Shown here: piece by piece, positions 6,639-22,588 of the stretch
Numbering within the stretch: position 1 is the first letter of the stretch
How the letters are laid out: every line of letters starts with the position of its first letter
From: Patescibacteria group bacterium
Lineage (GTDB): Bacteria; Patescibacteriota; Gracilibacteria; UM-FILTER-43-11
Assembly: GCA_043800105.1 (NCBI GenBank)
Contig: JAZDNJ010000047.1
Span: 1 to 34,052 of the forward strand
DNA length: 34,052 nucleotides
Direction of reading: 5' to 3'
Notes under the pieces: model-generated
The model's database searches: none
What the model was told of the DNA's origin: nothing
Seen by the model: only the letters and a program-made list of their open reading frames with translations
Made by a program: the position numbers and the translations under genes

Positions 6639-6654
6639 AATTACAAAAAAAGTC

Positions 6655-7349: not shown

Positions 7350-7365
7350 TACTTCTCAGGTAATC

Positions 7366-7395: not shown

Positions 7396-7409
7396 AGTAT
7401 CTGAGTTTC

Positions 7410-8890: not shown

Positions 8891-8919
8891 TTGACAGAGT
8901 GCGTGAAATAATTTATTAT
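8891..8919 (+). promoter_or_regulatory. Canonical sigma70-like promoter for the surface-protein / pilB2 unit
   Basis: TTGACA (8891-8896), a 17-nt spacer, then TATTAT (8914-8919). It lies 33 nt upstream of ATG 8952. Confidence 0.6.
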
Positions 8920-8951: not shown

Positions 8952-11441
8952 ATGAAAAGCTGGCTCGCATCAGGTCACAGGATAAAGTCATTTGGTCTTA
9001 TTGTACTCGTATTTTTACTGCTGGTGACAAAAGTCCATTCCGATACCACCTGGGAGGATATCGGGGTGAAGCTGTCCATCGAAATCGGCGATAGCAATGA
9101 GGATTTTGATGACGCGGAAGACACGGTTGAAAAAGGGCGTTTTGTTACTTATAGGGTGGAAGTGGCCAACACCGGTGATCAGGTGCATTCCAGTCTGGTG
9201 GTTTTGATGGAACCACCGGAATTCATGAACTATGTTCCGGGTTCAACCGCTTATATGGCGGACGAAGCCTCCGGATTCGTCGGGCTGAGTGATGCCGATG
9301 AGCTGAGCCCGCTCAATCTGGGTTATGAAATCGACAATATCTATCCGGGTTCATCGGTCTTCTTCAGTGTTCGTTATCAGGTGGCGGTGCCGGATTCAGA
9401 GAAGGATGATCCGATTTATACGCTGGCCTGGGCCAACGTTATGGGCAAGTACGCGGTAACCCCCACGCTCAGCAACCTGATTGAAACCGCGATTTCGGGT
9501 GAAGCCAAAGCCGTCATCAATGTGGTTGCGGAGCCTTCTCCGCCCGCCGGGCAACCGGTCGACGGTGGTTTATACATCGACTACCAGTACACCCTCCACA
9601 ACGTCGGAGGTCTGCCAGCCAACGGCATTATCTTCAAGCCTTATCTGCCTCAGCATACGACCTGCGCGCAGGATTGCGGGAATTTCAGTGTGACCACGCT
9701 TCAGCCCGATGAAGAAGCGATAGTGACAATGGTGGTGCAGGTGGATGCGGACTTAGAAGGGGTCACCCAAATCGAAAACATTGGTTACGACCTGAACGCG
9801 GATGAAATCGATTTTATCGAAAACCGCGACCCCATCATCCACCCGGTGGGCGAAGGAGCAATACCCGAAGGCGGTGATTTTGTTGTAACGATTGAGCAGG
9901 TGCCCAACATTATTCTGAATTCTGCGAACGGCATCGCGCGGGCCGACAAGGGTGATTTGACCGAAACCGTTTACGATACATGGTATGCGGGGCGCCATCA
10001 GCAGTATACCTATCCCGCTTTGAGCACCAACGAGGGCTATACTTACCGCGAGGGCATGGATTGTTCTTACTGGTTTCCTCATAAGTTCAATGCTTATACC
10101 TACGCGTATAACAGTGTCGGCGGGGGCTGTGACGGTTATATTTCAAGCTGTCCGCCGATGAGCACGCCCATTCAGTTCAGTGTTAGTACGGTTTTGCCAG
10201 GCGGGGCACCCAAATTGCTTTTTACCAAAAACACCACATCTTATTTGTACGGCGAAGCCAGTCCGGATTTTTTGGTAAACAATTACATGAAGAACGGTGG
10301 AACCTATCAGGCGCCGCGGATTTTTACTGAAAGCCGCGCGGCCGAAAACGGGGCCAATGGCATTGTCGAAACAAAAGTGACTTCTACCGTCTCGGAAGAC
10401 CGTTGGCAGTATGTGCAGTTCAGCACATCTACATGTAATGTGACTTGTGGTGAAAATACCTGCCCAATCGAAATTCCCCGTTACCGTTGGCAAAAAGTCC
10501 AGTCCACCCCCGTTCAATTGAGCGATACTGATATCACCGATATCACCGTCTATACCTCTACCGCCTGGCTCAAAACCGAAGGCGGGCACATTGGCACCAA
10601 TGATCGCTTTACGGGTAACTCACTTACTGACGCGAACTATGTGGACTTGGGAAATCCCGTTATCAAGCCGAACTTTTTGACGCCCAGCGATACTTACACC
10701 CCGCCCGGCGAAACCAACAGCGATTATATGATCTTCGGAAAAAACGGGACAGGCTCCTTCAAAAGCGCTTCCGGAGACGACTGGCTCCAGACGGGCACCG
10801 AATTTCCGTTTTTGGAACAGGGCGAGGCCTATGACCGCGCCGATAACCCTCGTGATTACTACCAGGACATGCTGGTGCGCGAGAAGTTCGGACCTGTCAA
10901 ATCCGACCAGCTGGAATCCCTGCTGACGGGCACGGTTGATATCGGTGACGGCATCGTCTGGAATCAGACGGGCGACATCACTATCGGTCAGACGGGCGGA
11001 ACCGAGGTAGTGTTTACGGGCGGTCAGTCACGCATTTACACGGCAGGGGACGTCTACATCAATTCCGACATCCGCCTGGGCACTTCGCAGGGGCAGAGTT
11101 ACAGGAATATTACTTCTCTGCGTATCGACGCGCGAAACATTTATGTCAGCGGCTTGGTAACCAACCTTGAAGTCATGCTTCTTGCCCGAGGCAGTTTTTA
11201 CAGCGGGGTCAGCAAAAATCAGCTCCGCATTCTGGGTGATGTGATTGCGGGAAAGGCTCACTGGGAAAGACAGCCTCTTTTGGAAGTCGATCCGGAAGAA
11301 TTTAACAAACCTTCCGAATATATCATCGAGGACATGCGTAAATACGTGATTCCGGTTCCGGGTGACACTACCGTGCCCGACGACTACAACATCTGGCGTC
11401 AGGTCAACCCGGCCACCGGCCAGACCTTAGATGCTTATTGA
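8952..11441 (+). CDS. Large secreted surface protein with DUF11-like (conserved repeat) domains and a Gly/Thr-rich C-terminal region
   Basis: It has a signal peptide (IKSFGLIVLVFLLLVTKVHSD). Two segments fit the DUF11/TIGR01451 pattern: GRFVTYRVEVANTGDQVHSSLVVLMEPPEFMNYVPGST and YIDYQYTLHNVGGLPANGIIFKPYLPQHT. The C-terminal half has no fold I can recognise. Confidence 0.5.
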   Translation: MKSWLASGHRIKSFGLIVLVFLLLVTKVHSDTTWEDIGVKLSIEIGDSNEDFDDAEDTVEKGRFVTYRVEVANTGDQVHSSLVVLMEPPEFMNYVPGSTAYMADEASGFVGLSDADELSPLNLGYEIDNIYPGSSVFFSVRYQVAVPDSEKDDPIYTLAWANVMGKYAVTPTLSNLIETAISGEAKAVINVVAEPSPPAGQPVDGGLYIDYQYTLHNVGGLPANGIIFKPYLPQHTTCAQDCGNFSVTTLQPDEEAIVTMVVQVDADLEGVTQIENIGYDLNADEIDFIENRDPIIHPVGEGAIPEGGDFVVTIEQVPNIILNSANGIARADKGDLTETVYDTWYAGRHQQYTYPALSTNEGYTYREGMDCSYWFPHKFNAYTYAYNSVGGGCDGYISSCPPMSTPIQFSVSTVLPGGAPKLLFTKNTTSYLYGEASPDFLVNNYMKNGGTYQAPRIFTESRAAENGANGIVETKVTSTVSEDRWQYVQFSTSTCNVTCGENTCPIEIPRYRWQKVQSTPVQLSDTDITDITVYTSTAWLKTEGGHIGTNDRFTGNSLTDANYVDLGNPVIKPNFLTPSDTYTPPGETNSDYMIFGKNGTGSFKSASGDDWLQTGTEFPFLEQGEAYDRADNPRDYYQDMLVREKFGPVKSDQLESLLTGTVDIGDGIVWNQTGDITIGQTGGTEVVFTGGQSRIYTAGDVYINSDIRLGTSQGQSYRNITSLRIDARNIYVSGLVTNLEVMLLARGSFYSGVSKNQLRILGDVIAGKAHWERQPLLEVDPEEFNKPSEYIIEDMRKYVIPVPGDTTVPDDYNIWRQVNPATGQTLDAY

Positions 11442-11474
11442 TATCTGATTACCCATAACTTTTAATCAATTCCC

Positions 11475-12995
11475 ATGAGCCCCCAAGCCAACGATTATAC
11501 CGCAGAAACAAGCCAAAAGGTCATCAAGTATCTTGAAGAAAACGGCTACCTTAAAGTTCAGGACATTAAAATCCTGAGCAAAAAGTCCAAAGACAAAGGG
11601 GTGACCGCCCTGAATATTTTCCTCGAGGAAAACCCCCATCTGCACGAAAAAACGGACAAGCTCATCAGCTACCTGTCCGAAAAAAAAGCGGATCAGAATC
11701 CTGACATCAAGACCAAAAGTAAGGTCAAAATTCTTGATGACGACGATGCCAAAGCGGGGGACGCGAATACCTTTGTTTTTGATATGCTCAAAAAATGTAT
11801 AGAGCGCGGCGCCTCGGATATTCACATCGACATGGCCTTATCAGGCGAGGGGCAGGCTGGCTTCAAGCTTCGCTTCAGGGTGGATGGCCGCTGTTTTGAT
11901 GAAGGCTTTTACGACGACATCACCCTGTATCGCGGAATTGTGAATAAACTTAAACTGGACGCGGGCTTAAAAATCGATGAGCGAAGACTTCCTCAGGACG
12001 GCCGAATATCCTTTGAGTTAAACGGCAGGGTTCACAACTTCCGTCTTTCGTTCATGCCAAATACCATCCGGAATAATCAGGAGGAAAAAATCGTCCTCAG
12101 GCAGATGGCGGATGTGAGCAAATGTAACCTGTACGATCTGGGTATTCTGCCTTACGCCATTAAATACCTCGAAGAGGCCATAAAATATCCGCATGGTTTC
12201 ATTTGCGTGACAGGGCCGACCGGCAGCGGTAAAACCACCACCCTTTACGCTCTGCTTCAGGAAATCGACCGCGAAAGTAAAAACGTGCTGACACTTGAAG
12301 ATCCGATCGAAGCCGAGATTCCTATGGTGAATCAGTCCCAGATGTTTCACCGCATCGGCTACGACTTTGCTTCGGGTCTGCGCGTGATTCTCCGCCAGGA
12401 CCCCGATATTATCATGGTGGGGGAAATGCGTGACGAAGAAACGGCGCTCCGGGCCTTCGAGGCGGCCAATACGGGTCATCTGGTCTTTTCCACACTTCAT
12501 ACCAACACCGCCGCCTCTACCGTCACCCGTCTTCTGCAAATGGGAGTTCCGCATTATTTCATCAGCTCCGCGCTCAAATTCATTGTGGCTCAGCGTCTGG
12601 TGCGTCGCGTATGTACCGCCTGTCAGGTGCCGCATCCTCACATGAATGAGGTTCAGAAAGAAATCGAAAGAGCCTTCCAGAACGCCTCGGCGGTGGTGAA
12701 GGATATTTACAAAGAAAAAGCCGCGTCCGCCACTATTCTGGTTCCGCACATAAACGGCAGTATCTGTGAAAGATGCAAAGGAACCGGCTACAAGGGGCGA
12801 ATCGGAATTTTTGAAATCATGAAAGTCACCGACAAAATCCGTCACATCATCAGTTTTGAAAACGGCAGTGAGGATAAAATTCAGGAAGTGGCCATAAGCG
12901 AGGGAATGCTCAGCATTCAGCAATACGGCTATCTGCTCGTTCTGGCCGGCCTGACCACCTTTGAGGAAGTGACCAATACGGTCCTTTCGGCCTGA
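11475..12995 (+). CDS. pilB: Second type IV pilus / T2SS assembly ATPase of the GspE/PilB family, with one N-terminal T2SSE_N-like domain
   Basis: It has Walker A VTGPTGSGKTTT, DPDIIMVGEMRD, GHLVFSTLHTN, and the tetracysteine CTAC...CERCKGTGYKGR. The N-terminus (KVIKYLEENGYLKVQDIKIL...) resembles the GSPII_E N-terminal domain. Confidence 0.9.
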   Translation: MSPQANDYTAETSQKVIKYLEENGYLKVQDIKILSKKSKDKGVTALNIFLEENPHLHEKTDKLISYLSEKKADQNPDIKTKSKVKILDDDDAKAGDANTFVFDMLKKCIERGASDIHIDMALSGEGQAGFKLRFRVDGRCFDEGFYDDITLYRGIVNKLKLDAGLKIDERRLPQDGRISFELNGRVHNFRLSFMPNTIRNNQEEKIVLRQMADVSKCNLYDLGILPYAIKYLEEAIKYPHGFICVTGPTGSGKTTTLYALLQEIDRESKNVLTLEDPIEAEIPMVNQSQMFHRIGYDFASGLRVILRQDPDIIMVGEMRDEETALRAFEAANTGHLVFSTLHTNTAASTVTRLLQMGVPHYFISSALKFIVAQRLVRRVCTACQVPHPHMNEVQKEIERAFQNASAVVKDIYKEKAASATILVPHINGSICERCKGTGYKGRIGIFEIMKVTDKIRHIISFENGSEDKIQEVAISEGMLSIQQYGYLLVLAGLTTFEEVTNTVLSA

Positions 12996-13012
12996 CATTT
13001 GTCAGGTGTTTT
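12991..13012 (+). terminator. Short hairpin plus a partial T-tract, overlapping the pilB2 stop codon (weak terminator or attenuator)
   Basis: CCTGACA TT TGTCAGG (12991-13006) is followed by TGTTTT. The stem is only 7 bp and the loop is minimal. Confidence 0.3.
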
Positions 13013-13046
13013 AGCGGGATGTTACAATTAAATCAACCTTTCCTCT

Positions 13047-16000
13047 ATGCTCAGGAAAACAAGACTCGCCCTTCCCCTCGGCTTTTCAGCCCTCCTCGCA
13101 GTCCTGCTTTTTCATGCAGCCTCCTTTGCCTCCTCTTTCTACGACGTTCCCCCGGATGACCTCCTCTTTTCCCCCTACATCCAAAAACTCTACGACAGTC
13201 ACCTTATCACCGGTGACACGCAAAACGGCAAAGAAACCTATTCCTTCCGTCCCAAGGATCCCCTGTCCCGTGCCGAGTTCACCAAGGTGGCCGTAGGCGT
13301 CAAGCTGGCCGAGAAGTTCGGACAGACGGAAAACTGGCAGGCCAAAAGCGCCTACGAGATGACGGAAACGGTTTTAAAGGACAAACTCCTTTACTTCCAC
13401 CAATGTGACAACTCCGACATCCCGCAGTGTGAAAACCAGTGGGGTGCCGACATCAAAGGTGTCTGTAACGTCTGTCTTCTCACCAATCAAAAACCCTTCA
13501 CCGATGTGAAGGAAAAAGACCGTAACTGCGAGGAGCAGGGAATCTGTTCCCCCTGGTATTCCGAATACATCTACTATGCCCTCCGCAAAGGAATGTTGCA
13601 GGGATACAAAGACATCTCTTCCTCACCCTCCTCCATCTCTTATTCCTTCCACCCCGACCAGTCCATCCTCAGAATCCACGCCCTCAAGCTCATCATGGCC
13701 GATGACGGAGCCGTGGCCCCCGAAGCCGATGAACGCTACCGCCGTCTTTCCCAGACCGCCAAAGCCAGAGGTTCTTACTTTCCCGAATGCCTGAGCGGAG
13801 CCGAGAACTTTATTCTGAACAATAACGGTGGCTCCGGACACCCCGAAGGAGAGAAGCTCCTCCAGTATGCCCTCCTTGCCGATAAACTCGACTTCTTCGG
13901 TAACCGGTGTCAGGTGTTTAGTACTTACGGAGCTAACACCCCTCAGGCCAAAGCCGACTTCCTTCAGTCCTACATGTCCCGCCGGGAAGCGGCCCGTTAC
14001 TTTGTCCTTTCCACTTCCTATTCACCCCTTATAATTAGCCCATTTGATGACGAGACGGTCGACGGCATTGTAAGTAATACCGAAGATCCCGAAAGTGTTG
14101 TCAAAGAAACGGTGAATGAAGATGGCGAAATCGTCAGGGATTTTAGTGATGTCACGATCAAGACCTATGCACAGAATGCACCCATTCCCATCAAAGATAT
14201 TGCGAGCCCCGATTCTCCATTTGATAGTACGTTTAATAGAGCTGCCTGCATCTTGAGTTCCTTTACGCCCAAAATCTGCAAGGATCCAAGTATGGCCAAT
14301 TGCAGCGATGTGCCCAATGGCTCCCGTATTCACACAACAGATGAGGAATATTACGGCAGGACCCCGCCCGGCTACTATACCTGGCTCTGGCATGGTGTGA
14401 TTTATAAAAGCATTGGTTACTATGTACCTCTGGATGACATCGATTTTGACTGTGAAAGAACCCTGCAATGGGAGGAGGCGAAAAGACAGGCAGAGGCTGA
14501 AGCAGCCAGGATAAGGGCATATAATGCCAAAATAGCGGCACAAAATGCCGCAAATGCAGCAGCCTATAAACAACAGCAGCCTGCCGCAGCAGCGCAGAAT
14601 TCACAGTTACCCTGGTATCTTGAGGGTCTAAACCCCTTCGTGCCATTCGTGAAGCCATTTATTCAGCCATATATCGATATTGGCAAAAATATCATCACGT
14701 ACAACATTCAGCAGACAAATTTGAGACAGGACATGCCATGGATTTATACGGCAGATTATTATGGAAATAACAAGGACAAAAGGGTTTCTAATCCATTTGA
14801 AGATATTATTAATGGGGGCATAGGAAGTGGAAAATCGATAGAACAATTTTTGACACCTGTATCGGGAAATAGTGTTTTACATGGATTTGGTACAGAGGTA
14901 ATGGATGGTTTACTAGGGGTAGGCAAGTCGCTTGCAGATAACATCGGAAAGGCTGCAAAGGATTTACACATGCTCACTGTTGACGGTGTCGAAATGGTTG
15001 GGAATGGCATTAAATATGTTACGACTGAAGCCGACAAATTGATAACAAATCAATTAGATAGCGTCCCTGATTGGCTGAAACCTACCATTCAGCCTATCAG
15101 AAATAGCTATAATCTTGGGAAGGGGTTCGTAGAGGGCGGAGCGGCAATGACAGAGGGCGTATTTCAGATCTATAAGGATCCAATTGGAGTAGTTAGTGGG
15201 ATAGGAACTGCCATCGCCCACCCCAGACAGACATGGTCGGCGATTAGTAAGGGGCTTAATGATTTTGCAAACGAATCACTGTCATCCACGGATAAATTGT
15301 ACGAGAATTCGGGGCGAATTATCTTCGAAATTGGCTCCTGGATTGTGGGTGCCGGTGAAGTGAAGTCGGTAATAAAGGCGGCAGAAATAGCGAAAGTCGG
15401 CAATACTGCGGCAAAAACAGCAGACCTGCTTAAAATAGTTGATGCCGTACAGGATGTGGGGACGATTGCAAAGGGTTTGGAAAAGATTGAAGATGTTTCA
15501 AGGGTTCAGAAAGTGCTGGCAGGCATAACCGACATGGAAAAAACGGCTGGCATTATTTCCAAAATGCAACCCGCAAAAGCCGCTGAAGTCGTTTCAGGAT
15601 TGAGTAAATCCACAATAGGAAATATACTCACAAAAATGGATGATATCGCCGCCGCCAAACTGATTACTACGGCAAAGGATGCCGAAAAAATGACTCAAGC
15701 TGTGGACACACTGGGCCTGACAAAAATAAGAAACATTGTCAGTAAACTCAATCCGGATGAAGCGGCCAATGTTATTTCCAAGATGGATGCAGGTAAAGCG
15801 GGAAAAATAATCACTGGCGTTGACCCTGTGAAGGTGGCGAGTATTCTTGAAAAAATTGATGTTGGAACAGCAGCAAAAGTAGTAAAAGAAATGTCTGAAG
15901 CCGAGGCTGGCTCAGCTTTGTTGAAGATTGGAGATGCAAACAAAGTTGCCAAAGTTTTACAGACGCTTAGTTTTGACAAGGCGGATGCTATACTTACAAA

Positions 16001-16523
16001 AATGGCAGAGCAATTAAGAAAGGATTATTCAAGCCTGGTTCCTGGTTTCAAAAAACAGCTTCAGGCTGTCGCGGATAAATTTGATGTTACACTTGATGTC
16101 GAAAATGTCCTTAAAGAGACGAAAGAAATCGTGTTGAAAGCACAGTTATCAAAAAGAGACATCTCGCAAGTGAATGACCTCATGCGAGGAAGATGGGTAA
16201 TTAATACGGAAGAAGAAGGTTATAAGATTGCTGATTATGTCGAGAGCAATTTCAAGATAATAGAGTTCAAAGATAATTTCGTCATACCGAAAAACTCAGG
16301 TTACAGGAGTTTACACTACTACATTGAATTCGATGGTAGAATCGCGGAAGTCCAAATCGTACCACGAACCATGTTTGAGGCAAATGAGAAGACACATATT
16401 ATTTTAGATAGATTGGATATCCTGAAATTGGATCCACTAAAAAATGCGGATGAAATTACTAAATTAAACTATGAAATTCTTAAAATGAATGATGAGGCAT
16501 GGGAATTATTCGTTAATAAATAA
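13047..16523 (+). CDS. Exported SLH-domain protein with a C-terminal divergent RelA/SpoT-like nucleotide pyrophosphokinase domain (candidate polymorphic toxin)
   Basis: It has a signal peptide (MLRKTRLALPLGFSALLAVLLFHAASFASS) and an SLH-like repeat (FYDVPPDDLLFSPYIQKLYDSHLITGD...FRPKDPLSRAEFTKVAV), plus two looser SLH-like repeats. A Cys-rich region and an A/Q-rich linker follow. Next comes a Gly-rich helical segment, then MgtE_N-like helical repeats at aa ~835-985. The last ~150 aa contain, in order, NDLMRGRWVI, FKDNFVIPKNSGYRSLHYYIEF (aa 1085-1090 = GYRSLH) and AEVQIVPRTMFEANEKTH (E1101). This matches the order of the RSH synthetase motifs. Confidence 0.6.
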   Translation: MLRKTRLALPLGFSALLAVLLFHAASFASSFYDVPPDDLLFSPYIQKLYDSHLITGDTQNGKETYSFRPKDPLSRAEFTKVAVGVKLAEKFGQTENWQAKSAYEMTETVLKDKLLYFHQCDNSDIPQCENQWGADIKGVCNVCLLTNQKPFTDVKEKDRNCEEQGICSPWYSEYIYYALRKGMLQGYKDISSSPSSISYSFHPDQSILRIHALKLIMADDGAVAPEADERYRRLSQTAKARGSYFPECLSGAENFILNNNGGSGHPEGEKLLQYALLADKLDFFGNRCQVFSTYGANTPQAKADFLQSYMSRREAARYFVLSTSYSPLIISPFDDETVDGIVSNTEDPESVVKETVNEDGEIVRDFSDVTIKTYAQNAPIPIKDIASPDSPFDSTFNRAACILSSFTPKICKDPSMANCSDVPNGSRIHTTDEEYYGRTPPGYYTWLWHGVIYKSIGYYVPLDDIDFDCERTLQWEEAKRQAEAEAARIRAYNAKIAAQNAANAAAYKQQQPAAAAQNSQLPWYLEGLNPFVPFVKPFIQPYIDIGKNIITYNIQQTNLRQDMPWIYTADYYGNNKDKRVSNPFEDIINGGIGSGKSIEQFLTPVSGNSVLHGFGTEVMDGLLGVGKSLADNIGKAAKDLHMLTVDGVEMVGNGIKYVTTEADKLITNQLDSVPDWLKPTIQPIRNSYNLGKGFVEGGAAMTEGVFQIYKDPIGVVSGIGTAIAHPRQTWSAISKGLNDFANESLSSTDKLYENSGRIIFEIGSWIVGAGEVKSVIKAAEIAKVGNTAAKTADLLKIVDAVQDVGTIAKGLEKIEDVSRVQKVLAGITDMEKTAGIISKMQPAKAAEVVSGLSKSTIGNILTKMDDIAAAKLITTAKDAEKMTQAVDTLGLTKIRNIVSKLNPDEAANVISKMDAGKAGKIITGVDPVKVASILEKIDVGTAAKVVKEMSEAEAGSALLKIGDANKVAKVLQTLSFDKADAILTKMAEQLRKDYSSLVPGFKKQLQAVADKFDVTLDVENVLKETKEIVLKAQLSKRDISQVNDLMRGRWVINTEEEGYKIADYVESNFKIIEFKDNFVIPKNSGYRSLHYYIEFDGRIAEVQIVPRTMFEANEKTHIILDRLDILKLDPLKNADEITKLNYEILKMNDEAWELFVNK

Positions 16524-16526
16524 CAT

Positions 16527-16976
16527 ATGAAAAAAGATGTGAAGCGGATCAAATATATGTCGGCCGAAGGGATTCCGGTTGTGGTAATTACTAACAAAGA
16601 TGGGAAACAAGATATAAAGGCCTATACTTCCACTGGTAGTTATGATTTTTCGCCTTTTGCCCTATTTAAATGGGGAAGCCGAATTTGCAAGGAGGAATAT
16701 GATGATTTGGTAAGGCGCATTGGTTATGAGAGTGAGCTTGCGATACTAAAATCGGCGGAAAAGAAGACTGTAAAAGATAAAGCTAAAATTAAGAAGATCA
16801 CACAATTTATGCAGGGGGTAGTAGAGAAACAACTGAATGGTCATTACAACAGAATTAGTTTGAGCGAGGAATTAGCTGAGCTGGAAGCGATTCACAAAAA
16901 AACGCCCAAAATAATTGTTAGAATGGAGGAAATACAAAAGTATTTAAGAGAAGATAGAAAAAAAAAGAACAACTAG
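16527..16976 (+). CDS. Hypothetical 149-aa cytoplasmic protein, a candidate cognate immunity/antitoxin protein
   Basis: Its ATG lies 3 nt after the toxin-like ORF's stop codon. It shares the same AT-rich composition. It has no signal peptide or TM helix and no motif I recognise. Confidence 0.4.
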   Translation: MKKDVKRIKYMSAEGIPVVVITNKDGKQDIKAYTSTGSYDFSPFALFKWGSRICKEEYDDLVRRIGYESELAILKSAEKKTVKDKAKIKKITQFMQGVVEKQLNGHYNRISLSEELAELEAIHKKTPKIIVRMEEIQKYLREDRKKKNN

Positions 16977-16999
16977 TAGTTTCTATAATCCACTATTAT

Positions 17000-17848
17000 A
17001 TGATCCGAATCATCTTTGGCATCCTAATCCTGATCGGCTTAGCCAACCAATTCATAGTTATGAAGGCGCCCACTTTTGACAACGTAGCCGAGATGCAGGG
17101 CTACGTAGCAGCGAAGATAGCTTTCCTGGTCTTGGCTATCTGGCTTATTTCTTCGGGCATCAAAAAAAGAAGGGCAAAGCAAGGTAAAACCGAGGAAAAG
17201 TCAAAGATGGGAATGATTGACTTCTTCAAGTCATATTTCGGCGGATACAAGGCCTTTCTGCATAAAAATATCGAGCTTAAAAAACCACCCTACTGGCTTT
17301 TAGTCATTTGGTTCTACGGGGTTGTCAGGGTACTTGTCAGGCTCGATTCGTCGGTGGCCGGAATAGGGTTTAATTTTAATATCCAGGGCTGGTTCGATTT
17401 GTGGGTAACATCTCTGGTTCTTGGCGCGGTCATCGGTTTTATTGGTTACTGGCTGGTGGGTTCCATTTTCCATCTGGGAGTCCTTTTGGCAGGCGGTCAC
17501 AAAAAGGCCAAAACGTCCCGCATGATTTTCATTTATTCCGGAATTCCTCACACAATTGCGGTGATGGCATTGTTTTTTGTCGGCATGCTGGCACTACGGG
17601 AAAATTACTTCTTAAACGGCGGTTTGGATCCAAGGTGGTTTTATATTTCGGGAGCCGCTTCATTTTATTCCATTGTTCTGGGGTACATTGGGGCAGTGGA
17701 GGTTCAGAAAACCAAAAAGATCCGCAGTATTCTGCTTTTTCTGGTAGTTCCGATTGCGCTTTACGCCTCTATTTACCTTTATTCATACGCTCAGTCGCAG
17801 GCAGACTACAAACAGATGATGCAGTCGATTCAGACGGAGGAGCAATAA
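17000..17848 (+). CDS. Polytopic membrane protein, Yip1-domain-like
   Basis: It has about 6 hydrophobic helices. The segment SIFHLGVLLAGGHKKAKTSRMIFIYSGIPHTIAVMALF resembles the Yip1/DUF1282 signature (h..a.l.GG.g....t.....Ys..P). Confidence 0.45.
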   Translation: MIRIIFGILILIGLANQFIVMKAPTFDNVAEMQGYVAAKIAFLVLAIWLISSGIKKRRAKQGKTEEKSKMGMIDFFKSYFGGYKAFLHKNIELKKPPYWLLVIWFYGVVRVLVRLDSSVAGIGFNFNIQGWFDLWVTSLVLGAVIGFIGYWLVGSIFHLGVLLAGGHKKAKTSRMIFIYSGIPHTIAVMALFFVGMLALRENYFLNGGLDPRWFYISGAASFYSIVLGYIGAVEVQKTKKIRSILLFLVVPIALYASIYLYSYAQSQADYKQMMQSIQTEEQ

Positions 17849-17871
17849 AAATTTGCGGTTCTCAAATACAT

Positions 17872-17900
17872 TTGACAGTCGGTCAACAAAATAATAGAAT
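17872..17900 (+). promoter_or_regulatory. Canonical sigma70-like promoter for the minor-pilin / module 2 operon
   Basis: TTGACA (17872-17877), a 17-nt spacer, then TAGAAT (17895-17900). It lies 22 nt upstream of GTG 17923. Confidence 0.6.
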
Positions 17901-17922
17901 AAACCCCATTTATTCCCTTTTC

Positions 17923-18438
17923 GTGAAGCTTTCGATCTTAAAACAATTACGAAGCCATGGGGGATTCACCTTTGTAGAGAGTCTGATCACTTTCAGTATC
18001 GTCGGGATCTTTTTAGCTCTTACATGGGCGACCGTAAACTTCCTGCTGATTAAAACCAACGAACAGATTGTCAGAACGCGGGCCCATTTTTTGGCGGTAG
18101 AGGGGATTGAGCTCCTCAAACAGATCCGCCAGACCGCCGTGAACGAGAATCGCGAGACCGGCTTCTATTCATCCATCGGAAGCAGGGATGGTCACTATAT
18201 TCTGGAGGCAAAGGGCGAAGGTTTTGACCTGGCCGAAGGCGCGAACGAACAGATTGTCATGGAAGATGAGCCATATACTACCTATTGCCGGACGGTTGAG
18301 GTCACCGGCTCGGGTGAAAGCGTGAAACAGGTATCCGTTGAAGTCCGATGGGGCGAAGCAACCGATTGCAGTCTGGGAGAGGAAATCATTGCTTACAGTA
18401 CTTACTTAGCCGATTTGGTTCATGAAAATAACGGGTAA
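17923..18438 (+). CDS. Prepilin-type minor pilin / pseudopilin
   Basis: It has the N-terminus VKLSILKQLRSHGG|FTFVESLITFSIVGIFLAL, with Glu5. Only a GTG start (17923) is available in frame. The tracked ORF 17401-18438 upstream of this point overlaps the Yip1-like gene and is discounted. Confidence 0.75.
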   Translation: MKLSILKQLRSHGGFTFVESLITFSIVGIFLALTWATVNFLLIKTNEQIVRTRAHFLAVEGIELLKQIRQTAVNENRETGFYSSIGSRDGHYILEAKGEGFDLAEGANEQIVMEDEPYTTYCRTVEVTGSGESVKQVSVEVRWGEATDCSLGEEIIAYSTYLADLVHENNG

Positions 18439-19087
18439 AAAACCTGCCGGCTTCACGCTGATGGAACTCATCATCGTTATCGGATTCTTCGCTTTCATTT
18501 CAGCCATCATCATGCAGAACCTCTTTGCCGTCTATCACTTCAAAGAGGTCATCCGCTACAAAAAGGACATCAATTTCGAAGCCAGCAGCGTGCTGAACAA
18601 CGGCATGGCGGGGATAATCCGTTCCGGATTCGCCATCAACTACGCCGAAACACAGATCGACAATAGCGTTCAGCCTACCGAAGGCATGCAGAGCAAAACA
18701 GATCAAATCTCCATTTTTACAGACCGTGCCGAAACCCAGTACTTTACCATTTATCGCGCACCCTACAGCGAAGCGGGTAATTACGACGGGGATGTCGCCC
18801 AGATGATGATCCGCTTCAGCAACGGTGAAACTTTCCCGCTTCACTCCTCCGAAACCGTCGTTGAGGACTTCGATGTCATTGTTCCTTCCGACCCCCGTTC
18901 CGCCGGAGATCCGGATTTACAGCCATACGTCACACTGTACCTGCGCGTCCGGCATCGCTACCCCTTCGGGGAAGCAGCTGCCGAAGAAACCCAGATGGCC
19001 TACAGGAATGTCAGGGCCTCGTACCGCACCACTTACAGCCTGCGCAATACGGTTCCAAGTAGTTATAAAACCCCGTCCGAAACTTAA
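18422..19087 (+). CDS. Prepilin-type minor pilin / pseudopilin
   Basis: It has the N-terminus MKITGKKPAG|FTLMELIIVIGFFAFISAII. It overlaps the preceding gene by 17 nt, which suggests translational coupling. Confidence 0.8.
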   Translation: MKITGKKPAGFTLMELIIVIGFFAFISAIIMQNLFAVYHFKEVIRYKKDINFEASSVLNNGMAGIIRSGFAINYAETQIDNSVQPTEGMQSKTDQISIFTDRAETQYFTIYRAPYSEAGNYDGDVAQMMIRFSNGETFPLHSSETVVEDFDVIVPSDPRSAGDPDLQPYVTLYLRVRHRYPFGEAAAEETQMAYRNVRASYRTTYSLRNTVPSSYKTPSET

Positions 19088-19102
19088 TTGTTAACCCCGT
19101 TT

Positions 19103-20275
19103 ATGTCTAAAGCCAAACGATACAATTTTAGTACCATCCTGCTTGCCTCATTTATCGCTTTCTTTGTCCTGCTTTACGTCATTGTCCAGCTGGTCGTGCT
19201 CCGTCCGCTCAAAAACGATTTTGAAACAGGTCAGAAGAAGATCGACACGCTAAAGGCGGCGCAGGAAGACCAAACCGAGCTTCTTGATCAGATCAATACC
19301 TACCGTGATGGTCTTTATGCGCTGAATTTGGTGCTGGAGGCACGAAAAAACGTCATCAGCGGTTCCGATGAGGAGAGCCCCTACCTGGTTTATGATTTTA
19401 ATCAGCTTCTCAATGATCTGAGACGCCTGCTTCCCCGTGATGCAAGGGTTACCAAATTCCAGATCAGCAACAAAGGATTGGTAACGCTTCCGGTGGAATC
19501 GATCGACTACGCGTCACTGGGCCGCGTTCTTAAAAGTTTTAAGGATTCCGAGCTTTTCACAGAAGTCAAAATACCTTCCGGAGCTCAGCGCGTGCCAAGA
19601 CAGGTCGATAGCGGATGGGGGCGTTATTTTGAGTATATCTACGGCTTCACTCTGCAGGCCGCCCTTGATCCAGTTTTCTGGCAAAACCCCATGCCATTCC
19701 CGGACGTTGATTCGCGTGCCTATTACGCGCAGGCCATTCGCGATCTGGTCATAGCGGGCACCATCGAAGGATACCCTGATGGTTACTTCCGTCCCGATCA
19801 GTCGGTGAATCGCGCCGAGTTCTTTAAAGTAGCCCTCTTTGAATTTCTTTCAAACGACACCATCAGCATCGGCGACTACAAAAAGTACATCGATCTTTCC
19901 GAAAAAGACTGGCATTACCAGTATATTCAGCTGGCCAGTAAAATGGGCATTGCCGAGGGGGACAACATCGGACGTTTCCACCCCGATCAGCCCATTAGCC
20001 GAATAGAAGCCTTAACGACACTACTGACCATCTTCGACATCGATACCAGTGAACCGGCGCCCGAATTCGATGAAAACGGAGAAGAGATTAAAGCTAAAGA
20101 ATTCGCCCTGCCGTTCAAGGATGTTGATTCCGGTAGTAAATATTATCGTATTATCAGGGCGGCCATAGCAAAGGGGCTTCTGGACAACATGGGAAACGCC
20201 TTTGAAGCCGAAAAATCAGTGACTCGCGCCGAAATTGCTTACTGGACCTGGAAGCTAAAATTTGATTACCTCTAA
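19103..20275 (+). CDS. PilN/PilO-like bitopic protein fused to three C-terminal SLH domains
   Basis: A TM helix (ILLASFIAFFVLLYVIVQLVVL) is followed by a coiled coil and an alpha/beta domain (RVTKFQISNKGLVTLPVESIDYASLGRVLKSFKDSELF). Three SLH-like repeats then follow: FPDVDSRAYYAQAIRDLVIAGTIEGYPDGYFRPDQSVNRAEFFKVAL, DLSEKDWHYQYIQLASKMGIAEGDNIGRFHPDQPISRIEALTTLL and FKDVDSGSKYYRIIRAAIAKGLL...KSVTRAEIAYWTW. The start is ATG 19103, with TTG 19088 as an alternative. Confidence 0.6.
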   Translation: MSKAKRYNFSTILLASFIAFFVLLYVIVQLVVLRPLKNDFETGQKKIDTLKAAQEDQTELLDQINTYRDGLYALNLVLEARKNVISGSDEESPYLVYDFNQLLNDLRRLLPRDARVTKFQISNKGLVTLPVESIDYASLGRVLKSFKDSELFTEVKIPSGAQRVPRQVDSGWGRYFEYIYGFTLQAALDPVFWQNPMPFPDVDSRAYYAQAIRDLVIAGTIEGYPDGYFRPDQSVNRAEFFKVALFEFLSNDTISIGDYKKYIDLSEKDWHYQYIQLASKMGIAEGDNIGRFHPDQPISRIEALTTLLTIFDIDTSEPAPEFDENGEEIKAKEFALPFKDVDSGSKYYRIIRAAIAKGLLDNMGNAFEAEKSVTRAEIAYWTWKLKFDYL

Positions 20276-20286
20276 ACTAATTCTTT

Positions 20287-21057: not shown

Positions 21058-21067
21058 CCGATTCACC

Positions 21068-21328
21068 ATGATCAATATCATTCGAAAAGCAACCATTGCC
21101 CTCTCGGTCGTTCTGATTATTTTTCTGGGCTACCAGGCATTTTTTAATAACACGGCCAAAGCCTGGAAGAATTACAGTCAGCCCCAGCTGGCGGCTTACA
21201 CCAGTCTGGAGCAGGATGAGGAAATTCTGAAAGAACTCGATCGTCAGACGCGCTATAATACCTATAAACCGCTTGATCCGGCTTACTTTGTAAAACCCAA
21301 TATTTTTCAGACCATCGAACGAAACTAA
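21068..21328 (+). CDS. Small single-pass membrane protein (86 aa) of unknown function
   Basis: It has an N-terminal TM helix (ATIALSVVLIIFLGYQAFF). Its TAA stop overlaps the ATG of pilC2 by 1 nt. Confidence 0.4.
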   Translation: MINIIRKATIALSVVLIIFLGYQAFFNNTAKAWKNYSQPQLAAYTSLEQDEEILKELDRQTRYNTYKPLDPAYFVKPNIFQTIERN

Positions 21329-22587
21329 TGTACATTTTCTTAGTAAAAGTCAGGGATGCTTTCGGGGCCTCGAAACAGGTCGAGATTAGCGCTGCCACAC
21401 CTCAGGAGGCCATCAAAATGCTGTCTGACGAGGGCTTTTACGCGGAACTCAGCGATATTCTTAAGGCACGTCGGGACAGCTGGCTGGGCAAATTACAGAA
21501 GATCGATTTTTCATCATTCTTTTCCAGAGTTCCGCAAAAAGATGTGCTTCGGCTCGTTAAAATCATCGGTAATTCTCTCGATCGTGGCCGAACGCTTAAG
21601 TCCACGCTGGATTTCGTCGGCGAGAATGAGGACAGTAAGCCCCTCAAAAAACTCATCCAGGGATTGCGGGAGCAAATGGATAAGGCTTTCAGCTCTCAAA
21701 TTGAAATTTTCAGCGCTTTTCCCCAGTATTTCGATGAAGAATTTCTTGGAATCATCGAGGCCGGTGAAACTTCCTCTAATCTGGGAAAATATTTACTGGA
21801 TTTTGTGGAAGAAAAAAAACGCCAGATCAGTCTGAACACTAAATTCAGGGCGGTGCTCATCAAACGTCTGACCACCCTGGTGATCGTGGTGATGGTGGCC
21901 ATCGTCGTGGTCATTTTTGTTATTCCGCAGTTCAAAGTACTTTTTGGTGAAGCCCTCGAGATTCCCTGGGGCATGCAGCTTTTAATGAATATCTCGGATG
22001 CTTTTAAAAATTTCGGCCCGATCATTCTGATGGTCGTCGGTCTGGGTATTGCCACTTTTTACTATTTGGTCGTACACAACGACAATGTCCGCTGGTGGTG
22101 GCACAATTTTTTGCTTCACATGCCGGTTCTGGGTAAAACACTCCGCACCTATTACACGGCACAGTTCACTTACTTGCTTTCCACCCTGCTCACCAAGAAT
22201 GTGGACATTATCAAGTCGATGAATATCATCATTCGCCAAAGCAGAAACGTGTGCATAAAAAAGACCTGCAAAAATATCATCAGCTCCATGCAAGGGGGTG
22301 ACGACCTTTTTAAGGCCATCATCAAAGAACATGAAGAAGAAAGGGATTATCTGGTTCCGGCCATTGTGCAGGCGGCCAAAGTGGGTACGGCAACCGCCAG
22401 TCTGGGGGCTACCCTGATGGACGTTCGGGATGATCTGGAGGAGCTTTTTACCACCCGCCTGGAACGCGCCATCAAGGTTTTCAGCGCTTTTTTCTATCTT
22501 TTTATCGTGGGTTTTGCCGTTTTTCTGGCCTACGCCATTGCCAGCGCCATTTTAGTCTTCTACGAAAACGCCCAGCAGTTGATTTAA
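21328..22587 (+). CDS. pilC: Second type IV pilus platform protein of the PilC/GspF family
   Basis: The N-terminal domain (VRDAFGASKQVEISAATPQEAIKMLSDEGFY) is followed by a T2SSF repeat carrying FPQYFDEEFLGIIEAGETSSNLGKYL. There are multiple TM segments and a second repeat. Confidence 0.85.
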   Translation: MYIFLVKVRDAFGASKQVEISAATPQEAIKMLSDEGFYAELSDILKARRDSWLGKLQKIDFSSFFSRVPQKDVLRLVKIIGNSLDRGRTLKSTLDFVGENEDSKPLKKLIQGLREQMDKAFSSQIEIFSAFPQYFDEEFLGIIEAGETSSNLGKYLLDFVEEKKRQISLNTKFRAVLIKRLTTLVIVVMVAIVVVIFVIPQFKVLFGEALEIPWGMQLLMNISDAFKNFGPIILMVVGLGIATFYYLVVHNDNVRWWWHNFLLHMPVLGKTLRTYYTAQFTYLLSTLLTKNVDIIKSMNIIIRQSRNVCIKKTCKNIISSMQGGDDLFKAIIKEHEEERDYLVPAIVQAAKVGTATASLGATLMDVRDDLEELFTTRLERAIKVFSAFFYLFIVGFAVFLAYAIASAILVFYENAQQLI

Positions 22588-22588
22588 A

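Follow-up and report, generated by a model that had tools for sequence, protein, structure and literature searches.

Why would a RelA/SpoT-type (RSH) pyrophosphokinase domain, whose substrate is ATP, lie at the end of a predicted surface protein that is encoded among type IV pilus genes? This question is raised by a gene from an uncultured ultra-small bacterium of the Patescibacteria, which we studied in a stretch of 34,052 nucleotides (contig JAZDNJ010000047.1), hereafter the window. The ORF lies at 13047..16523 on the forward strand, as do all of the features described below. It has an ATG start and a TAA stop, it encodes 1,158 amino acids (NCBI accession MFH0837965.1, from a Patescibacteria metagenome-assembled genome or MAG), and its coordinates match the preliminary description exactly. 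Translation table 11 fits, because 5 of the 26 ORFs in the window terminate with TGA. All of the sequences that we compared are from MAGs or metagenomes.

We consider it probable, from sequence comparisons and predicted structures, that this gene encodes a polymorphic toxin whose tip is an RSH domain and which is paired with a cognate immunity gene, in a small lineage of Patescibacteria. Little is known about cell-to-cell warfare in the Patescibacteria; if our reading is true, the locus offers a variant of a known bacterial weapon, with an RSH tip and an antidote gene, in which the swappable tip is carried by a wall-tethered protein from a pilus operon.

From the export leader to the RSH tip

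The protein begins with a signal peptide; SLH repeats with a Cys-rich insert come next, then, farther on, an array of helical repeats, and the C terminus is an RSH synthetase domain. (If the smaller segments are counted as well, there are about eight modules, and the RSH domain is the last.) The signal peptide (aa 1–28; 13047..13130) begins with MLRKTR and continues with a hydrophobic core of 19–22 residues and a cleavage-type junction, SFA/SS, with the cut between A28 and S29. It is the sole hydrophobic segment of the protein, and the junction (A-x-A/SSFYDV) is conserved in eight of nine homologs. Judging from these features, the ORF carries a Sec-type cleavable leader.

The leader is followed by a constant anchor module (aa 29–335; 13131..14051; GC content of 0.533), which includes SLH repeats and a Cys-rich insert with eight Cys. 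About 90 of its columns are invariant in an alignment of 9–10 family members. Pfam’s SLH family (PF00395) matches aa 31–78 (31.6 bits versus a cutoff of 20.8), and this is the only SLH repeat in the 1,158-aa protein that Pfam places above threshold. A second repeat, at around aa 150–190, was detected in homologs, and a putative third was recognized by eye from the motif MSRREAARYFV. All 12 Cys of the protein fall within aa 120–469 and most of them are invariant or nearly so across the family; by composition, there are no Cys in aa 470–1158. A disulfide-rich module with SLH repeats at the N terminus would tether the protein to the cell wall.

Next is an acidic linker (aa 336–394; 14052..14228; pI of 4.05), which is weakly conserved in the family alignment and has low pLDDT in the structural model. 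Then there is a small beta-rich domain that is bracketed by Cys (aa 395–468; 14229..14450), with predicted strands at aa 399–461 (block pLDDT of 59–81) and with C411 and C419 invariant. It has no match in Pfam, but by eye it resembles SH3b, and it is also present in P0015, a homolog that lacks SLH repeats. It is a candidate for a module that binds the target or the wall.

The Ala/Gln-rich segment (aa 469–512; 14451..14582) is modeled as a single long helix (aa 469–509) with low confidence. It leads into an unassigned region and a Gly-rich helical “pre-toxin” segment (DPIGVVSGIGTAIAHP...GSWIVGAGEV), which together span aa 513–790 (14583..15416). This part is modeled as disordered at aa 547–617 and as long helices with low pLDDT at aa 638–787, and a family search at E ≤ 1 matched nothing in it. 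The Gly-rich segment is shared by P0002, P0003, P0005, and P0015. The array of alpha-helical repeats (aa 791–976; 15417..15974) resembles MgtE_N and FliG: Pfam’s MgtE_N matches in three stretches (57 bits) and FliG_M also matches (33 bits). The model has about 18 helices of about 10 residues each at aa 791–973, with block pLDDT mostly at 66–87, and comparisons of its fold gave only weak matches, to ARM/importin and MgtE.

The predicted toxin domain occupies aa 977–1158 (15975..16523, including the stop codon). PF04607 matches aa 1023–1112 of the full protein (E = 1.8e-10, 41.5 bits versus a gathering cutoff of 27), and it matches the domain alone more strongly (E = 3.7e-12, 47 bits). TIGR00691 also matches the protein (E = 1.6e-12), and there is a marginal match to XopAD (E = 0.015). 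When we searched the PDB by sequence, every match to the tip was a Rel or a GTP pyrophosphokinase. The model of the domain (pLDDT of 90.1, pTM of 0.82) matches RelP in Foldseek (E = 3.6e-9, TM of 0.69), and it also matches the Streptomyces enzyme SaEAS (8vx3; E = 5e-8, TM of 0.67), Tas1 (6ox6) and CapRel (7ztb; both E = 1e-5), RelQ, and RelSeq. In fold, the domain comes closest to RelA/SpoT modules that belong to large phage proteins (TM of 0.78–0.80). The nearest relatives by sequence outside of the family include P0021, an RSH protein with a DUF4157/eCIS-core module.

We mapped 14 catalytic residues of RelSeq onto the tip and found that 12 are kept (the equivalents of K243, K251, D264, R269, K297, K304, Y308, S310, H312, E323, Q325, and R327). 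For example, D1044, which is the Asp of NDLMRGR, aligns with D264, and E1101 aligns with E323. R241 and N306 are replaced by V1021 and S1084, and the ExQIRT motif holds an insert of two residues, so the activity or the substrate could differ. By these comparisons, the tip is a pyrophosphokinase domain of the RelA/SpoT type, and its catalytic site is essentially complete. The profile search and the structural comparison thus bear out the RSH module of the preliminary description, and its other modules (the leader, the SLH repeats, the Cys-rich region, the Ala/Gln linker, the Gly-rich segment, and the helical array) were recovered as well, with the third SLH repeat visible by motif only and the Gly-rich segment modeled with low confidence.

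Exchange of the tip with its partner ORF

The protein belongs to a family of about 14 homologs that have the N-terminal ~470 amino acids in common and differ at their C termini. P0002–P0010, P0157–P0159, and L012 have 35–70% identity at the N terminus. (P0004 is named “MotE” by JGI.) The C termini are RSH domains of types A, B, or C, DUF6973, DUF676/esterase, or unassigned domains. The protein from the window is of type A; in types B and C, several of the catalytic residues are gone. P0015 has the pre-toxin, repeat, and RSH modules but not the SLH module, and locus L005 has a tandem pair of the gene.

Just 3 nt beyond the stop codon begins an ORF of 149 aa (16527..16976; pI of 9.6; NCBI MFH0837966.1, annotated as hypothetical), which is a candidate for the cognate immunity protein because of its position and because it co-varies with the tip. 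It has no relatives in Pfam, NCBIfam, or the PDB and matches no known family of immunity proteins or antitoxins. Its sole homolog is the ORF behind the other type-A RSH toxin (40% identity, E = 5e-29). In three independent pairs of homologous loci, the downstream ORF varies with the C-terminal type: the partner ORFs are similar within each pair (E = 5e-29 for the window and L001, E = 3e-11 for L004 and L005, and E = 8e-50 for L010 and L018), with each class resting on two loci because the family is so small. Across C-terminal types, we found no similarity between partner ORFs, while the Yip1 gene behind them is conserved throughout.

The predicted location of the partner also agrees with the class of toxin. 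None of the six partners of RSH tips, including the one in the window, has a transmembrane segment; the partners of DUF6973 and esterase tips have a single N-terminal anchor; and P0010’s partners are polytopic.

Together, the tip and the partner ORF form a cassette that is compositionally foreign (GC content of 0.36 versus 0.48; the tip alone is at 0.357, the partner at 0.369, and the window at 0.476) and in which the divergence of the locus is concentrated. The partner is the most divergent gene, with 40% identity to its counterpart in L001 versus 71–82% for the adjacent pilus genes. Overall, a constant N terminus, exchanged C termini, a co-varying next ORF, a foreign cassette, and conserved synteny support the view of the preliminary description that this is a polymorphic toxin, and the co-variation and the transmembrane-free partner argue for its suggestion that the next ORF is the likely antidote.

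The pilus operon and the possible targets

As first described, the gene lies in a type IV pilus locus. Immediately upstream is a PilB-type pilus assembly ATPase (11475..12995; Pfam T2SSE, 348 bits), which L002, L003, and L006 have at this position as well and of which L001 has a partial copy. The cluster opens with a predicted exported protein of 829 aa (8952..11441), which has an N-terminal hydrophobic leader and weak matches to DUF11/DUF7507; a counterpart of 827 aa precedes PilB in L002 and L003. Just 5' of the start codon is a promoter-like element (12999..13028; TTGTCA, then 18 nt with a TG, then TACAAT) that matches 10 of 12 consensus positions, but this is weak evidence because a consensus scan of the region found no more such sites in total than in shuffled controls.

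Downstream of the partner ORF is a Yip1-family polytopic membrane protein (17000..17848; Pfam Yip1, 29.5 bits), which is directly behind the partner in six loci (29–75% identity) and hence is a constant gene beside a variable cassette. It is followed by two prepilin-like (minor pilin) genes (17938..18438 and 18422..19087), for which Pfam’s N_methyl scores 20.1 and 15.7 bits, both under the cutoff of 21.2, and the leader G/FTFVE is visible; this pair is syntenic in L001 and L004. A PilN-like protein that is fused to three SLH repeats (19088..20275; SLH at 92 bits in three stretches, PilN at 21.5 bits or slightly under its cutoff) is conserved in L001, L004, and L007. Finally, there is a PilC-type platform protein (21328..22587; T2SSF, 92 bits). 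The toxin gene has the same slot or is in the same pilus operon in the window, L001, L002/L003, L004, L005/L006, and L007/L008, so the slot is kept in at least six loci. We interpret the co-location with pilus genes as co-inheritance and probably co-expression, rather than as mechanistic coupling.

If the protein is a toxin, then Sec would export it and it would be displayed on the surface. Pili would bring the cell to another cell, where the Cys-free C-terminal part would be released and would cross the target’s membrane. In the target’s cytoplasm, the RSH domain would move pyrophosphate from ATP onto a purine nucleotide, which would yield (p)ppGpp and/or (p)ppApp and drain ATP, or it might modify the 3' ends of tRNA; either way, growth would stop. 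RSH toxins kill when they act in the cytoplasm (PMC12691689). Cells that carry the gene would be protected by the basic cytoplasmic partner, which would bind directly to the acidic toxin domain. Profile searches of the protein found no domain for release or processing (HINT, peptidase, VENN, or PT-TG) and no recognizable translocation domain, and aa 513–790 have no match and are poorly modeled, which makes the delivery steps purely inferential. Taken alone, contact-dependent and pilus-assisted delivery is a tentative proposal that we lean against somewhat.

Because an immunity gene appears to be present, related Patescibacteria would be at least one of the targets, and a host bacterium may be another. 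It is unlikely, though, that the protein is primarily an effector against hosts, with the pilus attaching to a host and the RSH tip being delivered to halt its growth or to redirect its nucleotide pools. Patescibacteria are thought to be epibionts that attach to their hosts by type IV pili (PMC10633639; bioRxiv 2024.03.08.584096), and the toxin gene is built into a pilus operon. The partner would then protect the producer only from protein that folds before export, and a protein of 1,158 aa that is exported after translation could require such a safeguard in the cytoplasm. However, an adjacent immunity gene that is matched to the toxin is a mark of toxins against relatives, and effectors with distant targets usually lack one (PMC3482391). 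Also, Sec-exported RSH enzymes, as far as they have been described, manage without an immunity gene. The partners of the DUF6973 and esterase tips are anchored in the membrane and face outward, as expected for a guard against incoming toxin and not against folding before export, and the rapid diversification of toxins and partners between close relatives fits with competition among kin.

Patescibacteria rely on external nucleotides. It is conceivable, but quite improbable, that the protein remains tethered to the wall and is never delivered into another cell, and that it converts external ATP and GTP to (p)ppApp or (p)ppGpp as a signal or to modify scavenged nucleotides. There are documented RSH enzymes that leave the cell through Sec and show activity in spent medium, including SaEAS, which works extracellularly (PMC12691689) and which the model of the tip resembles. 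The claim in the preliminary description that an exported ATP-dependent enzyme “only makes sense” inside another cell was therefore too strong, and export alone is no proof of delivery into cells. A better argument for action inside a cell is the cognate partner without transmembrane segments, as SaEAS-type enzymes are short, have a single domain, and lack immunity genes. Furthermore, the same scaffold bears unrelated tips (DUF6973, esterase, and others), each with its own partner ORF, as one would expect of a toxin family and not of an enzyme of nucleotide metabolism, and the cassette is foreign and fast-evolving.

It is very improbable that the protein is a structural or regulatory component of the pilus or S-layer, in which case its N-terminal module and repeats would help to assemble pili or to anchor to the wall and the tip would be a degenerate, non-catalytic appendage. 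In favor of this, the gene keeps its place between pilB and the minor pilin genes, the neighboring PilN is also fused to SLH, the repeats are of a type that motility proteins contain (along with the “MotE” name), and relatives of types B and C have missing catalytic residues. However, the type-A domain retains both acidic residues of the catalytic site, and a purely structural part would not be expected to swap its C terminus for DUF6973 or an esterase together with a downstream ORF to match. In addition, P0015 does without the SLH module, and tandem copies as in L005 are usual for toxin arrays but not for the subunits of a machine.

Relationship to known toxins and RSH enzymes

For the toxin reading, the closest parallels in architecture include polymorphic toxins that depend on Sec and carry a constant N-terminal anchor specific to one lineage, such as MafB/MAFB-N of Neisseria, Microscilla-N, and APD1/2 (Zhang et al. 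2012, PMC3482391). In these proteins, as here, the signal peptide leads into a lineage-constant domain, the proposed surface anchor of the toxin; the C-terminal toxin is variable, and an immunity gene comes directly after it. Here, unlike in those systems, the constant module is made of SLH repeats and a Cys-rich insert, the gene is from a Patescibacteria MAG, and it is inside a type IV pilus operon with a constant Yip1 protein behind it. The text of PMC3482391 mentions neither SLH nor S-layers, nor the setting of Patescibacteria, a pilus operon, and Yip1. The preliminary description’s claim of novelty stands for the SLH scaffold and the pilus-operon position, which appear to be undescribed for an RSH toxin, as does the Patescibacteria host. 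As a whole, however, the claim is too broad: RSH heads on polymorphic toxins were described in 2012 (PMC3482391), and Sec-exported RSH enzymes were reported in 2025 along with fusions of RSH to LXG, Rhs/PAAR, MuF, DUF4157, and XopAD modules (PMC12691689).

The predicted layout also recalls the WapA type. These toxins are exported by Sec, tethered non-covalently to the wall by the N terminus, and extended in the middle; they end in a polymorphic toxin domain, and an immunity gene lies beside theirs. They are filamentous and wall-attached, are found in Gram-positive bacteria, and deliver the C-terminal domain on contact (as cited in PMC13460014). In contrast, a Pfam search found no Rhs/YD repeats in our protein: its stalk consists of the acidic linker, the beta domain, the long helix, and the MgtE_N-like alpha-solenoid, its wall-binding module is SLH, and its head is an RSH enzyme.

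Among RSH enzymes, SaEAS and VpEAS/RelV also have the synthetase behind a Sec signal peptide (PMC12691689), but they are not wall-anchored and are encoded at isolated loci, whereas here the RSH domain terminates a long multi-domain protein with a co-varying partner. In toxSAS systems (FaRel, FaRel2, PhRel, and CapRel; PMC11782079), a toxic RSH synthetase is accompanied by an adjacent neutralizing gene, as predicted here, and the fold of CapRel is among those that match the tip. However, the toxSAS toxins are small, carry no export signal, and stay in the cytoplasm, and here an exported surface protein would carry the RSH domain at its tip, with a partner that matches no known antitoxin family. 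Known RSH effectors include Tas1/Apk1 (T6SS), Apk2 (MuF, phage), LXG-RSH proteins such as AaEAS (T7SS), DUF4157-RSH (eCIS), and XopAD (T3SS) (PMC12691689, PMC3482391, PMC12226406). As in these effectors (the fold of Tas1 also matches), the synthetase is the C-terminal head of a modular protein, which usually has an immunity gene. Their PAAR/Rhs, LXG/WXG, MuF, DUF4157, and SKWP delivery modules are absent from our protein, and its delivery would instead begin from a Sec-exported, wall-anchored state.

Architecture of the protein and its RSH domain

The toxin ORF (13047-16523, + strand; MFH0837965.1) begins with ATG, ends with TAA, and encodes 1158 amino acids. TGA terminates five of the 26 ORFs in the window at sensible lengths, so the standard bacterial code applies; because of these TGA stops, and with the toxin gene itself ending in TAA, we rejected the alternative code (UGA as glycine) of the Gracilibacteria and Absconditabacteria.

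The protein starts with a Sec-type leader (residues 1-28), which consists of MLRKTR, a hydrophobic core, and SFA, followed by SS at the predicted cleavage site. The leader is the sole hydrophobic segment of the protein, and the junction (A-x-A followed by SSFYDV) is kept among homologs. Judged by these sequence features, the export signal expected of a polymorphic toxin is present. Residues 29-335 make up a conserved anchor module of SLH repeats with a Cys-rich insert. Proteins anchored to the wall by SLH domains typically have three tandem repeats. Here, one repeat is over the Pfam threshold (31.6 versus 20.8 bits), a second was found at the equivalent site in homologs, and the third is recognizable as a motif only, with large inserts between the repeats. 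An acidic, variable linker (residues 336-394) leads to a small beta-rich domain that is bracketed by invariant cysteines (residues 395-468; block pLDDT of 59-81).

The full-length AlphaFold model has a mean pLDDT of just 50.7 and was used for secondary structure only; a fold search of the PDB with this model returned nothing at E ≤ 0.001. The Ala/Gln linker and the Gly-rich helices of the preliminary description can both be recognized in the model: the former (residues 469-512) is a single long helix, and the latter lie, at low model confidence, at the end of a region (residues 513-790) with no family match. Next comes an MgtE_N-like array of about 18 short helices (residues 791-976; MgtE_N at 57 bits, with a match to FliG_M as well), and the RSH (RelA/SpoT homolog synthetase) domain occupies residues 977-1158. 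All 12 cysteines fall within residues 120-469, and the last 689 residues are Cys-free. This distribution fits a disulfide-stabilized anchor that remains on the outside, and a possible need for the C-terminal half to unfold.

Several lines of evidence identify the RSH domain. PF04607 matches the full protein with 41.5 bits and residues 977-1158 alone with 47 bits (E = 3.7e-12), versus a gathering threshold of 27, and TIGR00691 matches with E = 1.6e-12. Among PDB sequences, all of the matches are Rel proteins or GTP pyrophosphokinases. A model of the domain, built from an alignment of five sequences, has a pLDDT of 90.1 and a pTM of 0.82. The model has the synthetase fold, with its mixed alpha/beta nucleotidyltransferase core: every one of its best 50 fold matches in the PDB is an SAS, Rel, RelA, SpoT, SaEAS, Tas1, or CapRel structure. 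RelP/SAS2 is the best of these (E = 3.6e-9, TM score of 0.69), and the neighbors also include SaEAS, RelSeq, RelQ, Tas1, and CapRel. Both the profile search and the Foldseek comparison (with RelQ and Tas1 among the structures) thus bear out the domain assignment in the preliminary description.

By HMMER alignment to RelSeq, the reference for residue numbering, 12 of 14 mapped functional positions are kept, including D1044 (D264 in RelSeq) and E1101 (E323). (The mapped set includes K243, K251, D264, R269, K297, K304, Y308, H312, E323, Q325, and R327.) The changed positions are R241, which is Val, and N306, which is Ser, and there is a two-residue VP insert before the Arg of the ExQIRT motif. 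We conclude that the RSH domain is real, that its catalytic site is, as far as sequence can tell, intact, and that it looks active. For the class of product ((p)ppGpp, (p)ppApp, or modified tRNA), we found no sequence rule in the literature consulted; the model fits RelP, Rel, and SaEAS slightly better than Tas1 or CapRel, but this leaning is not decisive.

The model fits viral modules better than it fits housekeeping SAS enzymes. Its viral neighbors (in BFVD; TM scores of 0.78-0.80, rmsd of about 3 Å) are RelA/SpoT modules within multidomain proteins of about 1000-1300 amino acids from uncultured tailed phages, and some of these proteins are named DdrB-like or ART-PolyVal-like. This similarity between models hints that RSH warheads may be exchanged between phage and cellular toxin systems.

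Exchanged C-termini and matched partner genes

We found about 14 relatives of the protein, all from metagenome-assembled genomes or metagenomes. Additional searches yielded six loci on genome contigs (mostly weak, SLH-only matches), four short loci on metagenome contigs, and, from a second profile search, three new proteins; in public data, the family is genuinely rare. The N-terminal 470 or so amino acids are common to the relatives (35-70% identity) and the C-termini differ, as expected from the polymorphic-toxin-like reading in the preliminary description. Three subtypes of RSH tip are present. The window protein and P0002 share type A. P0003 and P0007 have type B, which has no Pfam match, but its invariant D..R, SGYR, and E align. 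P0004 has a divergent type C, which is below the Pfam threshold. Other relatives end in DUF6973 (P0006, P0008, and P0159) or in a DUF676/alpha-beta-hydrolase esterase (P0009), and four have tips without an assigned domain (P0005, P0010, P0157, and P0158). Pfam gave no match for the C-termini of P0005 and P0010; by eye only, the P0005 tip has a ParB-like look. A more distant member, in locus L012, has a sub-threshold RSH domain at its C-terminus.

An exhaustive HMMER search with the C-terminal 182 amino acids returned 5377 relatives. Among these, P0015 (750 amino acids) combines a signal peptide, the beta domain, the pre-toxin helices, MgtE_N repeats, and a type-B RSH domain, without the SLH module. 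On this evidence, the parts of these proteins behave as shuffled modules, and the deliverable half also circulates on other scaffolds.

Two further features were seen in the relatives. In P0003, P0004, P0006, P0007, P0008, and P0157, the linker after the beta domain carries two or three copies of a Cys-loop motif, (D/N)CGV.MSC(E/D/N)P, which is not in the window protein. Locus L005 has two members in tandem, one with a type-B RSH domain (584-3577) and one with a ParB-like-looking tip (4838-8266), each with its own downstream ORF or ORFs; for the first member, these are a soluble ORF and a polytopic membrane ORF.

In every family member, the gene that comes next varies with the type of the C-terminus. 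The two type-A partners are homologous to each other (40% identity, E = 5e-29), as are the two type-B partners (E = 3e-11) and the two DUF6973 partners (41% identity, E = 8e-50), and there is no similarity between the partners of different types. The partner of the type-C RSH protein belongs to the DKNYY family. In the window, the partner ORF (16527-16976, + strand; MFH0837966.1; 149 amino acids) starts 3 nt after the toxin gene and has no relative in Pfam, NCBIfam, or PDB sequences. Co-variation in three independent, type-matched pairs, with no similarity across types, argues for this ORF as the likely antidote.

The predicted location of the partners fits the class of toxin. All six partners of RSH tips lack transmembrane segments, as would suit an enzyme that depends on cytoplasmic ATP. 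The partners of the DUF6973 and esterase tips have one N-terminal anchor, and those of P0010 are polytopic membrane proteins. In the window, the toxin domain is predicted to be acidic (pI of 5.25) and the partner basic (pI of 9.6).

Base composition and divergence also set the cassette apart. The GC content of the N-terminal module is 0.533; it drops to 0.357 (RSH domain) and 0.369 (partner ORF) and rises again to 0.455 in the Yip1 gene that follows. In a comparison with L001, which is the closest locus, identity is 71-82% for the adjacent pilus genes, 56% and 65% for two distal genes, 69% for the N-terminus of the toxin, 55-61% for its C-terminal half, and only 40% for the partner. Such a pattern is typical of a toxin/immunity cassette that recombines and evolves fast while its scaffold stays stable.

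The two ORFs after the toxin gene are annotated as "hypothetical protein" and "Yip1 family protein". The latter is a polytopic membrane protein that follows the variable cassette in six loci (17000-17848 in the window, 4539-5336 in L001, 14168-15103 in L002, 4546-5358 in L004, 8721-9596 in L005, and 5019-5627 in L009) at 29-75% identity, and it is conserved even though the cassette before it differs between loci. Possible roles are those of a general factor for export, release, or the blocking of import, or of a receptor.

The type IV pilus operon and its homologous loci

The window, a 34,052-bp contig from a metagenome-assembled genome of the Patescibacteria, is chromosomal in character, with housekeeping genes (release factor, NusA, HisRS, shikimate dehydrogenase, and an HhH-GPD glycosylase) along with two sets of pilus genes. 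The larger set spans about 8952-24000 of the + strand, and the gaps between its genes are very short. The first gene (8952-11441) encodes an exported protein of 829 amino acids and is followed by PilB, the SLH toxin protein (13047-16523), the partner (16527-16976), Yip1 (17000-17848), two prepilin-like genes, and a fusion of a PilN-like protein with three SLH repeats (19088-20275). After these come two small ORFs, PilC, and two more prepilins.

The toxin gene thus does lie within a type IV pilus locus, as first described, in a slot between pilB and the minor pilins, and this slot is occupied in the same way in L001, L002/L003, L004, and L005/L006. In L007/L008, the gene comes last in the pilus operon, behind pilC and a pilin. 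In L012, a giant pilin-like gene is nearby but in a separate transcription unit. On the short contigs L009 and L010, no pilus genes are visible. This recurrence shows co-inheritance and probably reflects co-expression, but it does not establish a role of the pilus in delivery.

Several other features of the region are worth recording. Within 20 kb, the window has two PilB/PilC/prepilin sets, one compact (PilB, PilC, and a pilin; 4089-7349) and one large and toxin-bearing (11475-24000), which suggests two pilus systems with different jobs. The SLH repeats of the PilN-like pilus alignment protein are canonical (92 bits) and are kept in L001, L004, and L007; given this fusion, the pilus machine itself and the toxin appear to share one type of wall anchor. 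The 829-amino acid protein has only weak matches to DUF11 and DUF7507, has a counterpart of 827 amino acids at the same place in L002 and L003, and may be an adhesin or a pilus-associated surface protein. A DUF4012 protein of 679 amino acids (27305-29344) is encoded where the pilus region ends distally. In L012, the giant pilin-like gene (178-3213), near the distant SLH-RSH member, encodes a protein of 1011 amino acids that combines a FecR domain with a prepilin N-methylation motif. The L012 contig is labelled as Myxococcales and may be mis-binned, as the N-terminal module of the SLH-RSH member is related to the Patescibacteria family. Pairs of promoter-like hexamers are found upstream of the toxin gene (12999-13028), of the first gene of the cluster (8891-8919), and of the minor pilins (17872-17900). 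In the promoter and terminator scan, total site counts were not above those in shuffled controls; these sites, including the one directly 5' of the toxin gene, may be due to chance, and we give them little weight.

Precedents and a proposed mode of action

The preliminary description overstated the novelty of the protein. A study from 2012 already reported polymorphic toxins with RelA/SpoT heads, in T7SS, XopAD/T3SS, and MuF contexts (PMC3482391), and a survey from 2025 lists some 600 RSH enzymes as exported, carrying Sec signals or one of the modules LXG, XopAD, MuF, DUF4157, and Rhs/PAAR (PMC12691689). Constant N-terminal anchors that are specific to a lineage (MAFB-N and others) are likewise known from Sec-dependent polymorphic toxins (PMC3482391), and filamentous toxins attached to the wall are known from Gram-positive bacteria (PMC13460014). 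Systems of this kind are therefore known, with precedents for both the toxin class and its general architecture. Three features of polymorphic toxin systems (Zhang et al. 2012) are found here: a constant anchor at the N-terminus with alternative tips, a type-matched next gene, and a leader. In a literature search that was incomplete, we found no mention of an SLH scaffold, of Patescibacteria as carriers, or of a polymorphic toxin in a type IV pilus operon.

Each of the known formats differs from this one. SaEAS and VpEAS are short, single-domain SAS enzymes directly behind a signal peptide, at isolated loci with no immunity gene (PMC12691689), whereas here the RSH domain is at residues 977-1158 of a multidomain protein and a co-varying partner lies 3 nt downstream in a conserved operon. 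The toxSAS toxins are small and cytoplasmic, have no export signal, and are encoded in two- or three-gene toxin-antitoxin operons, unlike this 1158-amino acid protein with its leader, SLH module, and pilus operon. The RSH effectors of T6SS (Tas1/Apk1), T7SS, MuF, eCIS, and T3SS (XopAD) systems have delivery modules (PAAR/Rhs, LXG/WXG, MuF, DUF4157, and SKWP, respectively); Pfam identified none of these in the toxin protein, and the helical repeats have just a marginal NCBIfam match to the SKWP repeats of XopAD (E = 0.015; 12.5 bits versus a cutoff of 2000). WapA/Rhs wall-associated toxins have an Rhs/YD shell between the anchor and the toxin. This shell is not present here: no RHS/YD family matched at E ≤ 0.1 in the full protein or at E ≤ 1 in the middle region. 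Similarly, PT-TG, VENN, HINT, peptidase, and Rhs domains had no Pfam match at E ≤ 1 in residues 469-806.

The observation in the preliminary description is confirmed, and its interpretation is supported in its core. The architecture, the polymorphism of the family, the co-variation of the partners, the intact catalytic site, and the position in the operon can be read directly from sequence, and from these we propose the following mode of action. Sec export and SLH tethering would put the protein on the cell surface, and pilus-mediated contact would bring a target cell near. The Cys-free C-terminal part would then be released and imported into the target, where the RSH domain would consume ATP, pyrophosphorylating a purine nucleotide or possibly tRNA. 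In carrier cells, the partner would block the toxin by direct binding. Release and import are the weakest steps, because Pfam identified no processing or translocation domain. Action inside another cell is retained in this proposal, but the earlier argument that the enzyme only makes sense there was too strong, as some exported RSH enzymes work extracellularly (PMC12691689). By analogy with other polymorphic toxins, an immunity gene that adjoins the toxin gene and matches its type makes relatives the probable targets (PMC3482391). A host is also a possible target.

A bolder version would make the type IV pilus part of the delivery device, with the operon encoding a complete contact-dependent killing system. 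Retraction would pull a neighbor onto the SLH protein; the C-terminal half (pre-toxin helices, alpha-solenoid, and tip) would be released and imported, with Yip1 and the 829-amino acid protein as accessories; and RSH would be one of several interchangeable warheads against competing epibionts and possibly the host. We consider this version unlikely. If true, it would mean pilus-coupled toxin delivery without a secretion system in monoderm, ultra-small bacteria.

A sizeable part of bacterial diversity falls to the Patescibacteria, whose presumed lifestyle is attachment to other cells. To our knowledge, there is next to no information on their competition with each other or on the ways in which they harm hosts. 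The locus is a concrete candidate: a surface-tethered protein with exchangeable, putatively toxic tips and matched candidate antidotes, in the operon of cell-contact pili. If confirmed, polymorphic toxin systems would extend to this phylum, the SLH-anchored scaffold would join the known delivery formats, RSH toxins would gain a new delivery context, and a part of pili in delivery would become a question to ask. With an unrelated partner family for each of the three RSH subtypes, the toxin/partner pairs could also be a source of new RSH inhibitors. The locus is also an experimentally approachable lead into interbacterial conflict in Patescibacteria, since the C-terminal domain and its partner can be tested in E. 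coli without culturing the carrier.

Classical toxin-antitoxin pairs adjoin homologous loci, namely ParE/PhD in L002 (5096-5648) and MNT/HepT in L010 (613-1216), which suggests that conflict genes cluster in this region.
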